From positions 1 through 64,000 of the IMG/VR virus record IMGVR_UViG_3300008107_005910: a stretch of 64,000 bases of DNA. One strand, 5' to 3'. The first letter of the stretch is position 1. Each line of letters opens with the position of its first letter. The position numbers and the translations under genes were made by a program. The notes below the pieces were generated by a model. The model was given only the letters and a program-made list of their open reading frames with translations, had not been told where the DNA came from and searched no databases. This DNA comes from a virus. Positions 1,962 to 31,087 of the stretch are shown piece by piece.

Positions 1962-2007
1962 TTTCTGATGCTCAGTTCTCTCAAATAAATATTAATTTGA
2001 ATAGAAG

Positions 2008-2571
2008 ATGAGCAAACCTTTAGATTACACCACCGCACAAGAACGAGTAGAATCCAAACTACTTAATTCACACGTACATTTTTTGACGGGTGACATTGAT
2101 GAAGACACTATTCGATCAGCAATTCAATGGCTTGTCTATGAAAATCTCAGTAATGAATCCAAAACACTGACGTTATACGTTAATACACAAGGCGGTGATT
2201 TATATCAAGCATTTGCTTTGATTGACCTAATGCGAGTTAGTAAACATACCATTAGGACAATTGGTATTGGTAGTGTTATGAGTGCTGGATTTTTAATATT
2301 TGTTTCAGGAACTCCTGGTAATAGAATAATTGCACCAAATACTGGTATCATGTGTCATCAATATAGTGACTGTACAGAAGGCAAGCATCATGACCTAAAA
2401 GCCACTATGCAGGAAGGCGAACATTGTAATAATCGAATGTTAGAAATAATTGAAAGCGCCTGTGAATTAGATGCCAAAACTATCAAAAGAAAACTTCTTT
2501 GTCCAACTGACACTTATCTAACTGCCTCTGAATTATTAGTATTAGGTTTGGCAGATTCACTATTGACATAA
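2008..2571 (+). CDS. clpP: ClpP-like ATP-dependent protease proteolytic subunit
   Basis: LYVNTQGG, GSVMSAG (catalytic Ser), MCHQ (His), DTYLTA..GLAD motifs. Confidence 0.85.
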   Translation: MSKPLDYTTAQERVESKLLNSHVHFLTGDIDEDTIRSAIQWLVYENLSNESKTLTLYVNTQGGDLYQAFALIDLMRVSKHTIRTIGIGSVMSAGFLIFVSGTPGNRIIAPNTGIMCHQYSDCTEGKHHDLKATMQEGEHCNNRMLEIIESACELDAKTIKRKLLCPTDTYLTASELLVLGLADSLLT

Positions 2572-2591
2572 TCTTAATTAATTGTTATAAT
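2563..2591 (+). promoter_or_regulatory. consensus sigma70 promoter
   Basis: TTGACA (2563-2568), 17 nt spacer, TATAAT (2586-2591). Confidence 0.85.
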
Positions 2592-2597
2592 TGTTTT

Positions 2598-2860
2598 GTT
2601 AGTTAGGCGAAAGTCAAACTAACCGGCGATGTAAAAGGTAGACGAGGATAGGCGCTGTTATCGCTTCGTGCGATGACGAAAATTACTGGCAAGCACGCCT
2701 TGAAAACGTGCCCGTGCTTGAGTGATCCGAAATCATATACCTTTGTCATTTGTACTCGGAAATATTCAAGCCTCTGTGCATTGTATTTTGTACTTTGGCT
2801 TAGGGCTAGTCCCGTTTGCATATTGTCCGGTCTATTACTTGACCTTTTACAGGACCGTTA
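2598..2860 (+). ncRNA. putative large structured ncRNA / leader of unknown family
   Basis: Follows a perfect promoter; long-range helix TGTAAAAGGT (2630-2639)/ACCTTTTACA (2842-2851); internal hairpins; no convincing ORF. Confidence 0.6.
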
Positions 2861-2882
2861 ACTTTTTGAATAGGTAAAAAAA

Positions 2883-3122
2883 ATGGAAAAGAAATTTCAA
2901 AGTCGTGGTCCCAATCTTGATACAGATTTGTGTGTTAAAAACTTTGGCGACAATAGGTTCAGTATGGTCATTGGCGCTTCGTTAAGAGCGAAAGAAATTA
3001 AACGTAATAACAAAGAGAGTGAAAGATTTGAACACACTCATCCAGTTATGACAGCACTAATGGAAATCCAAGAAGGTAAAGTTGGGCCAGAAATACTTGA
3101 CAAATTACGTAAGAAAAAATAA
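2883..3122 (+). CDS. rpoZ: RNA polymerase omega subunit-like protein
   Basis: NRFSMVIGASLRAKEI...PVMTALMEIQEGKV matches the omega pattern NRY.LV..A..RARQL...P...AL.EI..GK. Confidence 0.75.
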   Translation: MEKKFQSRGPNLDTDLCVKNFGDNRFSMVIGASLRAKEIKRNNKESERFEHTHPVMTALMEIQEGKVGPEILDKLRKKK

Positions 3123-3148
3123 AATTAAAGAAACAAAGGGATACAGAT

Positions 3149-3724
3149 ATGAACGTTTCACTACGCAAAGCAAACGCTATTCAAAATTCAATTAATGATA
3201 TCATCAAAGGTATCAAAATCAATCTAACTGCGGAGTTCAATGAATTCCAAGATCCAGCAGTTGAGCTTCAAAGACTAAACACAGAAGTGTTTATCAATGA
3301 TCAACGTCGTAGCGATTTACTCACTGCTCAATTTAGCATTCGTGGTCTTGTTGGTGCGGCCAATGCTACCAGCGGTGTTGATGCTAAACTAACACAGGCT
3401 GCTTTCATTGACAAACGTATTGCTCAACTGGAAACATTTGCCGGTGCAGAAGTGATGACAGATATGGCTGTGATTTCTGGCAAATTAGAAAAGATTCGAA
3501 CCCGTGTAAACGACAACAGTCGTGCAAGCATTTATGGTCGCGATGATACTGTACACACTGCATTGTTGACCAAAGCGCAGATTGATACTGCAAAAAGCAT
3601 GATTCGTGATCTTAGGAATCAAAAACAAAAACTCAATGATGAAATTCTTGAGTTGAATGTGCGTACAGAAATCACATTGACCAATGATGTTGAACAAATT
3701 CTTCGTACAGAAGGTTTGGTTTGA
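3149..3724 (+). CDS. hypothetical coiled-coil phage protein
   Basis: 191 aa ORF with RBS. Confidence 0.7.
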   Translation: MNVSLRKANAIQNSINDIIKGIKINLTAEFNEFQDPAVELQRLNTEVFINDQRRSDLLTAQFSIRGLVGAANATSGVDAKLTQAAFIDKRIAQLETFAGAEVMTDMAVISGKLEKIRTRVNDNSRASIYGRDDTVHTALLTKAQIDTAKSMIRDLRNQKQKLNDEILELNVRTEITLTNDVEQILRTEGLV

Positions 3725-4251
3725 AACAAAAGTATATTGAGCTGTATATGGATTGGGCCGCTCGTTCGGCTCAATTGAGTCATGCCAAAAGACTACAAGT
3801 TGGTGCAGTCATTGTAAAAGATGACAGTGTTATTAGCTACGGCTATAACGGTATGCCTGCAGGTTGGGATAACAACTGCGAAGATAAAGAATACATGAGT
3901 CATGACGCAGGCGGATGGCTCAATCCAGATGAAATTGAAGAACGCTGGCCATTTGAAGAAGAGGAGCAGGGTCCTTACTACGAATCTAGTAGACGCTATC
4001 GACTTAAAACTAAACCAGAGGTCTTACATGCTGAGTCTAATGCAATCGCTAAATTGGCAAAAAGTTCAAGCAGTGGTAACGGCGCTAGTATTTTTATTAC
4101 TCATGCTCCATGTCACGACTGCGCGAAACTCATTTATCAGAGCGGTATCAGTAGTGTATACTATCGTAGTGCTTATCGGGATAATGCAGGGTTAGAATTT
4201 TTAGAGAAGTCTGGAATAGAAGTTAAACAAATTAATAAGGAAATAAAATGA
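3721..4251 (+). CDS. dCMP deaminase
   Basis: VGAVIV, GYNG, HAESNAI, PCHDC zinc motifs. Confidence 0.92.
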   Translation: MKQKYIELYMDWAARSAQLSHAKRLQVGAVIVKDDSVISYGYNGMPAGWDNNCEDKEYMSHDAGGWLNPDEIEERWPFEEEEQGPYYESSRRYRLKTKPEVLHAESNAIAKLAKSSSSGNGASIFITHAPCHDCAKLIYQSGISSVYYRSAYRDNAGLEFLEKSGIEVKQINKEIK

Positions 4252-4537: not shown

Positions 4538-5353
4538 ATGAACATAGATTTTTCAAATCTTGAAACACAAGGTTATATAGTGATACCTAACTTTTTATCA
4601 ATTGAAGAAATTGATATGTTCATTACTGATAAAAATACCAGTACAAGATTGTTTAATAGTTTTCATAGCATACCAATGCCATCAAAAACTATTCTTGAAA
4701 AAATTTCACCTAAAGTATTAGACCTAATGAATCAGATTGGTGACAATACGTCAATTAAAACCAATGTGATATCAATGTTATCCTTATATATGGATACGTC
4801 TAATTTTCAAATGCCTTGGCATCAAGATCATGTGTCATGGTACATTGATCAACATCATGATAATTATTTAAATTTTTATATTTCAATTATTAAACCTAAT
4901 TCAAATTTATCAGGATTGAGTTTGATTCCTTACGATGTTATTGATAAAAATTTTCCTGAGTACAAAGAAAAATTTTTAGGGAAAGGGGCTAAAAGATTTT
5001 TCCCAAATAATAACAAGACAACTGTATTTGATGACGAAACTGGTGAGGAATATGATTTACCTATCAATATTGACAATGTACAAGTGTCCCCAAAAATAAA
5101 TCCTGGTGATGCTTTGATATTGAGAGGTGATGTAATTCATAAAACACAAGACACATTAACCAATCGTTTATCTGTTACAATTAGATGTTTGGATGGTAAC
5201 TTTGTTGTTAGTAAAAAGAAAATGTTAAGTACTGAATGTAAGACAAAAAGTTCAATTTTAACATCAAATTTAGATCTTTATAGAGCAGTGATAAATGCTT
5301 ATGGTGATAAAGAAACTATGACCATTTTTGAACTGTATGAAAAATGGAATTGA
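4538..5353 (+). CDS. phytanoyl-CoA dioxygenase-like 2OG-Fe(II) oxygenase
   Basis: GYIVIPNFLS, WHQD (HxD), PGDALILRGDVIH, NRLS. Confidence 0.8.
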   Translation: MNIDFSNLETQGYIVIPNFLSIEEIDMFITDKNTSTRLFNSFHSIPMPSKTILEKISPKVLDLMNQIGDNTSIKTNVISMLSLYMDTSNFQMPWHQDHVSWYIDQHHDNYLNFYISIIKPNSNLSGLSLIPYDVIDKNFPEYKEKFLGKGAKRFFPNNNKTTVFDDETGEEYDLPINIDNVQVSPKINPGDALILRGDVIHKTQDTLTNRLSVTIRCLDGNFVVSKKKMLSTECKTKSSILTSNLDLYRAVINAYGDKETMTIFELYEKWN

Positions 5354-5733
5354 GGAATTGTTGTAATCCCTTCAAAGCGAAGGCATCTTGGACGGGGGTT
5401 CGATTCCCCCCGGGTCCACCATAAGGAGATTAGTATGAACGACGATTTAACTCCCCTAGCAATAGGCGTAGTGGTTGTTTTAGTAGTTTTTGCTCTAGTC
5501 CTTTTATGATGGGCCCGACCGGTTTCGACAGGGTGAGATAGTAGAGACGGCAACACGGTAGGCGATGACCGTAAATCAAGCAAAACAAGTAAATGCAAAT
5601 GCAAAAGCAATTACAACTGAAGCAGAAGTAATGACTTTCACCTGGGATCTTCCAGCTAACGAAAGCCGTTACGCTCTAGCAGCCTAAGAAACTGCACTTC
5701 CGAGGTAGGACTTACCTTGTTATCAAAACAACC
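5354..5733 (+). ncRNA. ssrA: tmRNA, circularly permuted (two-piece) gene
   Basis: Acceptor piece ends GAC-GGGGG-TTCGATT-CCCCC-CGGGTCC-ACCA (5421) before the 5' piece GGGCCCG-ACCGGTTTCGAC (5511); G3:U70 pair; tag frame 5595-5687 ends YALAA*; outer ends approximate. Confidence 0.92.
5435..5509 (+). CDS. 24-aa hydrophobic peptide inside the tmRNA intervening segment
   Basis: AAGGAG RBS then MNDDLTPLAIGVVVVLVVFALVLL*; fills the spacer between the CCA and the tmRNA 5' end. Confidence 0.6.
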   Translation: MNDDLTPLAIGVVVVLVVFALVLL

Positions 5734-5760
5734 AAATAGCACCTTCGGGTGCTATTTTTT
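5734..5760 (+). terminator. intrinsic terminator
   Basis: AAATAGCACC-TTCG-GGTGCTATTT + T run between convergent units. Confidence 0.85.
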
Positions 5761-30289: not shown

Positions 30290-31006
30290 TTATTGGTTGT
30301 CAAGTGTAACTGTAGTATTCAATACGGCTGATCCAAATGTCCACTTAGCAGTTGCGCCACTAGCGAACTGTGCGCCAGCAGAACTGGTACCACCCCAAAC
30401 GTTTGCGGCTGGAACCAATGTACACTTACGATTACTAATCTTTGTAACAAAATATGTACCGCCTGCGCTGTCAGTTGCTCTAATGCTCATTTGTCCATCA
30501 GCTAGATTTTCAGTAGCAACAAGTTTTAAAATTGCTGTGCCATCTGCTGTCTGTACTTTGAAACGACGTGAGCCTACTTGCTTAATAACATCTCCAGCTG
30601 TGTTATCACTACCGCCAGGAATTTGTGCTTCACACATCAACCCATTTTGACGAGCAGTACCACTAGATGTTAAAGTAGCAACAGGGGTAGCACTTCCAGA
30701 TCCTCCTGCAACACTACCGTTGAAAGTAATAGTTGGAGCACTTGTGTAACCAGAACCTGCTGATACAACTTCCACTGTATAAGCAGTTGCGCCAGTAACT
30801 ATAACTCTTAGTACTGGTTTAGCTCCGCCTGCAACGTTAGGAGCACCAATTTGTGCCGCTGGAATTGGATATGTACCGTTTACTAGATCAGCCAATGTGC
30901 CAGCTGGAGCTGTTACGCTGGCGATGCTTTCTCCGCCTACGTTTGCTGTGCCAAAATCTTGATAGTTAGTATTGGCAAAATATTTTTTGTTTAATGGACG
31001 TCCCAT
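30290..31006 (-). CDS. probable virion structural protein
   Basis: MGRPLNKKYF start; GSGYTSAPTITF beta motif; Gly/Ala/Thr-rich. Confidence 0.7.
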   Translation of the reverse strand: MGRPLNKKYFANTNYQDFGTANVGGESIASVTAPAGTLADLVNGTYPIPAAQIGAPNVAGGAKPVLRVIVTGATAYTVEVVSAGSGYTSAPTITFNGSVAGGSGSATPVATLTSSGTARQNGLMCEAQIPGGSDNTAGDVIKQVGSRRFKVQTADGTAILKLVATENLADGQMSIRATDSAGGTYFVTKISNRKCTLVPAANVWGGTSSAGAQFASGATAKWTFGSAVLNTTVTLDNQ

Positions 31007-31087
31007 TTGTTTTCTCCTTATGTTGACGTTCTAGGTCATACGCTGTGGGTACAGCATAAACTTGCCCTATGCAAGCTGACTGTATAT

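Follow-up and report, generated by a model that had tools for sequence, protein, structure and literature searches.

The window analysed here is a stretch of 64,000 nucleotides, the first 64 kb of a 76.8-kb virus record from IMG/VR (IMGVR_UViG_3300008107_005910). The CheckV completeness of this record is 22%, which implies that only part of a jumbo phage is covered. The locus under study is a gap of 311 nt, bounded by a ClpP-like protease gene (2008-2571; PF00574, E 9e-33) on one side and by an ORF of 79 amino acids (2883-3122, + strand) on the other. This ORF had been said to resemble rpoZ in the initial annotation, and it is indeed a homologue of the omega subunit of RNA polymerase (RpoZ/Rpb6), as it passes both curated cut-offs: 36.4 bits for PF01192 (cut-off 26) and 24.3 bits for TIGR00690 rpoZ (cut-off 23.6). 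It is followed by a gene for a protein of 191 amino acids (3149-3724, + strand), which belongs to a large uncharacterised phage family and will be called the 'helical protein' after its predicted structure. Auxiliary genes are found around this module: besides the ClpP-like protease, they encode a dual-specificity phosphatase-like protein (596-1063), a dCMP deaminase (3721-4251) and a PhyH-type dioxygenase (4538-5353).

A sigma-70 promoter on the + strand (2563-2591) leads into the gap. It had been described as perfect, and this description stands: the match is 12/12 and includes an extended -10, with TTGACA at 2563-2568, a 17-nt spacer, TG at 2583-2584 and TATAAT at 2586-2591. From the spacing, the RNA is predicted to start near G2598, 7 bases past the -10 element, and this is also where the first hairpin of the fold described below begins. 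A promoter of the TTGACA-17-TGnTATAAT type, followed by a short conserved leader and a hairpin, was found in all full-length copies of the upstream type. A second sigma-70-like promoter (11/12; 3097-3125, + strand) is situated in the final codons of omega, 5' of the helical protein gene, and its letters are kept identical in two related loci (L002 and L006). No terminator-like site was found between 1400 and 4400, so that the 3' end of the RNA is undefined; as, in addition, the copy of another locus (L090) is placed between two ORFs of one operon, the RNA is only a candidate for a discrete species.

On the + strand, the stretch 2598-2882 folds with a free energy of -87.1 kcal/mol (z -3.6), and none of 200 shuffled sequences folded as well. 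The same stretch read on the - strand gave a z of -1.9 and did not surpass its shuffles as the + strand does. A total of 36 distinct homologues of the RNA were recovered. One IMG/VR relative was reached through its omega protein, and a pattern made of an 18-nt invariant core returned two more genuine homologues from IMG/VR, of which one is full-length and the other truncated on the 5' side, together with one chance match. A metagenome scan with the core and the start of the closing rod gave 42 loci, of which about 29 were true, in freshwater samples. Genome contigs scanned with the core pattern produced only five chance matches, none of them with the partner gene. Full-length homologues of the upstream type score 84 to 277 bits with our model of the RNA, R1. 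In a 353-kb relative that is 98% complete, the RNA is present as a single copy. Its nucleotide identity among loci (61-88%) is close to that of the flanking genes (60-92%), meaning that RNA and genes diverge at approximately the same rate.

The alignment of homologues gave strong covariation. For 22 distinct sequences aligned with MAFFT, RNAalifold predicted 52 pairs, with 98.2% of cells paired and 26 pairs showing compensatory changes, compared to 14.3 +/- 1.4 when columns were shuffled and 5 to 8 when registers were slid; the covariation score was 0.375, versus 0.18 in shuffles. With all 36 sequences aligned to R1, 99.1% of cells were paired, compensatory changes were seen at 34 of the 52 pairs, and the score was 0.44 compared to 0.185 in shuffles; this second alignment is fitted to R1 and so leans to the structure, a bias of which the 22-sequence MAFFT alignment is free.

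The consensus is a closed multi-branch fold with five hairpins, namely a 5' hairpin and a rod of about 23 bp that encloses the other four. The 5' terminal hairpin (2598-2623), proposed initially as GTTAGTT/AACTAAC, is present; it has a GAAA-capped tip in this phage, six of its seven pairs covary, and it forms in every homologue although the sequences differ. The 5' strand of the closing rod (2624-2653; helices 2-4) pairs with 2830-2857, through 2624-2626/2855-2857, 2631-2639/2842-2850, 2643-2646/2838-2841 and 2647-2653/2830-2836. Compensatory changes affect 12 of these 23 pairs, and 99-100% of cells are paired. Within the rod, all five modelled pairs of hairpin H2 (2657-2677) covary. Hairpin H3 (2693-2711), a 5-bp stem with a conserved CUUGAAAA-type loop, folds in 22 of 22 sequences with differing stems, and its column pair 149:159 covaries. 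Hairpin H4 (2714-2772; helices 6-7) is composed of an outer stem (2714-2724/2763-2772), an inner stem (2727-2730/2756-2759) and a 25-nt loop, with compensatory changes at 8 of its 14 pairs. Hairpin H5 (2803-2813; helix 8) covaries as well; it is a variable and dispensable insert, missing in five of the related loci (L062, L066, L070, L088 and L090) and in Caulobacter phage CcrColossus. A short long-range helix also covaries, from GGC/GCC to UAC/GUA.

A long closing rod and two enclosed hairpins had been proposed from the window alone, and this proposal holds in part. The outer rod (2631-2639/2842-2850) covaries, whereas the inner register, TAGAC/GTCTA with GGATA/TGTCC, was wrong: it shows no compensatory change and does no better than shuffles, and the conserved pairings at this place are 2647-2653/2830-2836 and 2643-2646/2838-2841. 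Among the enclosed hairpins, GTTATCGC..GCGATGAC corresponds to H2 and covaries, whereas CAAGCACG/CGTGCTTG is not conserved, again with no compensatory change and no advantage over shuffles. It is replaced by H4: its 3' half pairs instead with the 2763-2772 side of this hairpin, and 2693-2711 is taken by a smaller one. The non-covarying register of the inner rod still pairs in 93% of cells, and two similar 5' segments, GGUAGAC and GAUAGGC (within 2639-2653), can each pair with one 3' strand (2823-2836). An alternative conformer, or a conformational switch at the inner rod, is possible.

Three ORFs lie inside the RNA (62, 51 and 72 amino acids). They contain stops or frame-shifting indels in most homologues and were rejected as genes, as they are not conserved. 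With this loss of the ORFs and the strong covariation, the outcome is the opposite of what the initial annotation had named as grounds for refutation. A search of Rfam found no family at gathering scores over the whole window, none at E<=10 over 2400-3200, and none on the RNA in seven other loci. Among GenBank phages, blastn found nothing similar to 2000-3800, and query P0301 returned neither a viral locus nor a GenBank phage match. We conclude that the segment 2598-2860 (+ strand, approximately 263 nt) is a real, non-coding, structured RNA, under selection and of an uncatalogued family. The initial annotation had announced a promoter-driven structured RNA of about 260 nt, either 6S-like or of a new class, and on size, structure and the second of these options it was right.

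The most regular feature of the RNA lies in its unpaired parts. Eight UUG or CUG triplets are found in groups of 2, 4 and 2, at 2743 and 2750, at 2774, 2781, 2788 and 2795, and at 2816 and 2823, with a spacing of exactly 7 nt within each group. All eight are unpaired in the consensus, where they occupy three single-stranded stretches: the loop of H4, the linker between H4 and H5, and the linker between H5 and the rod. The H4 loop holds two UUG. The central tract (2774-2797), kept in 34 to 36 of the 36 sequences, contains one CUG (2774) and three UUG. The 3' pair (2816-2828), two UUG kept in 33 of 36 and 36 of 36 sequences, ends in the signature UUGUCC beside the 3' strand of the rod, and forms the invariant core that was used for the homologue search. 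Scoring in the alignment was possible for seven of the eight, which are retained in 33 to 36 of the 36 sequences. For the RNA of the window, four UUG pairs are found at distance 7, and the other distances between 3 and 12 have none, a pattern not reached in any of 1,000 shuffles. H5 is inserted between heptads 4 and 5; in CcrColossus and the five loci that do without this hairpin, six heptads form one unbroken run, and in L062, L066 and L070 these are the last six triplets.

The omega gene was the obvious candidate for a functional partner, and the initial annotation had tied the RNA to it, as a 6S-like decoy or other polymerase-directed RNA that would remodel the host RNA polymerase together with the phage omega. 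In favour of this idea, the homology of omega is genuine, and in most loci of this clade omega is found no further than about 1.2 kb from the RNA. Moreover, no polymerase beta or beta-prime subunit was recognised in the 98%-complete, 353-kb relative (very divergent phage polymerases could escape the models), which would leave the host enzyme as the one for a phage omega to act on. However, the position of omega varies. The order is RNA, omega, 191-amino-acid gene in the window, and RNA, 191-amino-acid gene, omega in L011, L038 and L040, while in L009 omega is about 1.1 kb upstream. Among 22 loci retrieved through the helical protein (see below), omega is placed between the RNA and the protein gene in 18 and is missing in 4. 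No match to PF01192 was found in a 128-kb relative that has the RNA, nor in the complete genomes of CcrColossus and Domovoi, which keep the helical protein with a similar element, and no omega is present within 11-13 kb of the RNA homologues of L088 and L090. Omega is thus a frequent but dispensable, facultative neighbour of the RNA. The slot between the RNA and the helical protein gene (L007, L012, L023, L062) is occupied by omega of at least three sequence types (MEKKF..., MARITS/MARYTS... and MKEAKQ/MNKQLSS...), which suggests repeated replacement or fast divergence of omega.

With 6S RNA (RF00013 and relatives) the present RNA has in common that it is a non-coding RNA of a few hundred nucleotides, driven by a host-type promoter and paired at its ends, and that it stands beside a polymerase subunit gene. 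The differences lie in the fold, a rod around four hairpins and single-stranded tracts rather than a rod with a central bubble resembling an open promoter, and in the dispensable character of the link to the polymerase gene. The 6S covariance models had no match at E<=10 in 2400-3200, at gathering score in the window, or at E<=1 in seven other loci. Given the loci and whole genomes in which omega is absent, we consider a polymerase-directed role, 6S-like or other, very improbable. In this clade, omega is best taken as an optional passenger that shares a strong early promoter and would act on the host core enzyme.

The constant partner of the RNA is the helical protein gene, on which the initial annotation had been silent. 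Linkage was examined in 22 IMG/VR loci fetched solely through a family member of 32% identity; in 22 of 22, the RNA was found on the same strand, at most 250 nt upstream of the gene, with R1 scores of 84 to 252 bits. Conversely, all RNA-anchored loci with enough sequence carry the helical protein gene. When viral DNA was scanned with a generic six-heptad pattern, 27 stretches matched. Five are situated directly downstream of a gene of the helical protein family, and two of these five are clear R1 homologues: L090 (64 bits, E 2e-19), where a promoter precedes the protein gene and the RNA begins 2 nt past its stop, and L088 (53 bits, E 6e-16). As these two RNAs are downstream of the gene, the RNA-protein pair survives a swap of gene order. 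RNA and helical protein gene are therefore strictly linked, in either order, and it is this protein, not omega, that constantly accompanies the RNA.

The helical protein family counts 1243 representatives at 50% identity (E<=1e-3). For the 191-amino-acid protein, AF2 predicts a bundle of helices and two short strands (pLDDT 83), and the structural relatives of this model are only uncharacterised phage proteins, including those of CcrColossus, a Vibrio phage and an Erwinia jumbo phage. The protein matched no Pfam, PHROG or NCBIfam family. A cluster of neighbours in the ESM Atlas (score 0.92) has PF20935 (DIP1984/DUF6847) on 19% of its members, which is a lead only. The PF20935 HMM matched neither the protein nor 13 close and 48 diverse relatives, nothing at E<=10 came out when the window's record and five records related to it were searched in six frames, and the profile-versus-PDB, Foldseek and VIA-align lists for the protein contain no DIP1984/DUF6847 entry. 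With a pI of about 6, the protein is not basic, and it has no recognised RNA-binding domain, both of which count against its being the protein of a ribonucleoprotein.

Distant homologues of the helical protein (24-27% identity) are encoded by cultured phages, namely CcrColossus (gp272) and Brevundimonas jumbo phages. Behind each of them lies a gap of 285-313 nt without annotation, which in CcrColossus corresponds to L049 3095-3378 (JX100810.1, approximately 201,299-201,582) and in Domovoi to L050 3098-3410 (ON529855.1). These gaps fold strongly, with z values of -6.2 and -4.0. Both present a 5' hairpin as well as a closing rod, in which the two phages differ by compensatory changes. Six consecutive UUG heptads are found in the CcrColossus gap, while in Domovoi the UUG spacings are 11, 11, 15 and 14 rather than 7. 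The CcrColossus element is the best R1 match in its locus, and a weak one (6 bits, E 0.23), so that homology at this distance rests on architecture. A genome search with R1 retained no candidate in CcrColossus or Domovoi at the first filter; the link to these two phages therefore relies on the neighbouring homologous gene, a common layout and the weak 6-bit alignment. The two gaps look like divergent versions of the RNA. In neither phage do the small ORFs behind the element encode omega.

Other RNA genes are present near the module. A tRNA-like sequence ending in CCA is found at 1457-1601, behind a second 12/12 sigma-70 promoter (1457-1485), and in L002 the 3' part of a similar tRNA-like sequence precedes the ClpP gene, at about 2000-2052. 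A permuted, two-piece tmRNA lies at 5304-5759 (Rfam tmRNA_permuted 137 bits, beta_tmRNA 119 bits), for which ARAGORN predicts a 30-residue tag ending in ANESRYALAA. A tmRNA gene is also found in L047 (2500-2918), so that it travels with the module of RNA, omega and helical protein, and tRNAs flank this module in L007, L010 and L033. Elsewhere in the window, the freshwater-2 motif of Rfam was identified at 31004-31076 on the - strand (65.8 bits for a gathering score of 49.9).

ROOL and GOLLD have been reported in similar clusters of phage RNA genes (tRNAs, tmRNA), and by analogy with these multimeric ornate RNAs the present RNA might act alone, as a scaffold or a ribozyme, the helical protein being a syntenic neighbour or a chaperone. 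The many invariant unpaired nucleotides and the closed multi-branch fold agree with such a role. Yet whichever of the two was used for the search, RNA and protein gene proved strictly linked, also where their order had changed, and periodic single-stranded triplets are typical of protein recognition, not of RNA-only folds. We therefore hold an RNA acting on its own to be quite improbable.

Probably, the RNA makes up one half of a hitherto undescribed RNA-protein pair of phages. The linkage of the genes, taken by itself, fits a ribonucleoprotein as well as a cis-acting element that responds to the protein. Under the latter hypothesis, the helical protein or another factor would bind the heptad tract of its own operon transcript and control translation, stability or read-through of the neighbours, as do HutP, TRAP and T4 gp32. 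Indeed, the RNA is always in one transcription unit with the protein gene, the next ribosome binding site follows 12-25 nt on, no terminator separates the RNA from the genes, and the gene-RNA-gene order of L090 mirrors that of hutP-terminator-hutH (PMC2425495). On the other hand, neither a terminator/antiterminator alternative nor sequestration of the ribosome binding site is visible in the fold, and in the window the helical protein gene has its own promoter beyond omega. The genes that flank the RNA also vary by lineage (omega, helical protein gene, unrelated ORFs), and with 263 nt and some 55 conserved pairs the RNA is far more elaborate than known protein-binding operators. A cis role thus appears rather unlikely. 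The strict linkage to the helical protein, combined with periodic unpaired triplets of the HutP kind, favours a ribonucleoprotein.

According to this ribonucleoprotein reading, the host sigma-70 RNA polymerase would transcribe the RNA early and strongly from the consensus promoter. The RNA would be a stand-alone species, acting in trans, and the rod and hairpins would hold the heptad tract in shape, so that protomers of the helical protein could bind the triplets, putatively one per 7 nt. By analogy with HutP, we give an even chance to this core proposal, a trans-acting early RNA whose heptad triplets are bound by the protomers. The outcome would be a phage ribonucleoprotein, which may have a cellular target. 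The complete picture is put forward more tentatively, as having somewhat less than an even chance of being correct: a novel ribonucleoprotein, with protomers on UUG triplets spaced by 7 nt and held by an RNA scaffold, that would occur widely among large phages of freshwater, including jumbo phages of Caulobacter and Brevundimonas in culture, would serve host takeover at the level of RNA or transcription biology, and would have recruited omega in one clade.

Few structured RNAs of phages are known to have a dedicated protein partner. The present pair is shared by many uncultured phages from freshwater (more than 1,200 clusters at 50% identity in the protein family), and its likely counterparts in cultured Caulobacter and Brevundimonas jumbo phages make it genetically testable. 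If the proposal is true, a periodic single-stranded recognition tract set in a conserved scaffold would represent a new way to build an RNA-protein particle, and it would offer a handle on the clusters of RNA genes (tRNAs, tmRNA, tRNA-like genes) that surround the module in large phages. A caution for annotation also follows: omega, although the most conspicuous neighbour, turns out not to be the functional partner, and readings based on guilt by association are at risk.

Several known RNA classes invite comparison. Like ROOL and GOLLD, which are structured RNAs of phages and prophages, of unknown function and often beside tRNA genes, the RNA was found by comparative genomics; those are RNA-only multimers of 500-800 nt (PMC5737381; bioRxiv 10.1101/2024.12.08.627333), whereas here approximately 263 nt come with a dedicated protein gene, and no similarity to ROOL or GOLLD was detected in the RNA, by sequence or by Rfam model. 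With the Y RNAs of the Ro60/Rsr system (YrlA, RF02553) it shares a closing stem and genetic pairing with one protein. The partner here is a predicted helical bundle, as opposed to the TROVE ring; the YrlA model had no match on the RNA, and RtcB was absent from four phage records of this clade, including the 98%-complete genome.

The closest parallel is with HutP and the hut terminator RNA of Bacillus subtilis. The hexameric HutP reads, on single-stranded RNA, a triplet repeated with 4-nt spacers, its target being UAG-N4-UAG-N4-UAG (PMC2425495). Both systems thus display a trinucleotide with 4-nt spacers, hence a 7-nt period, on unpaired RNA and in at least two blocks, and in both the protein gene adjoins the RNA; HutP is an oligomeric reader, while for the helical protein binding is only putative. 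They differ in the triplet, UUG/CUG here in place of UAG, and in the partner, which has neither a HutP domain nor a Pfam family. They differ finally in the RNA itself, which in the phages is a closed multi-branch fold of 263 nt instead of a terminator/antiterminator switch.
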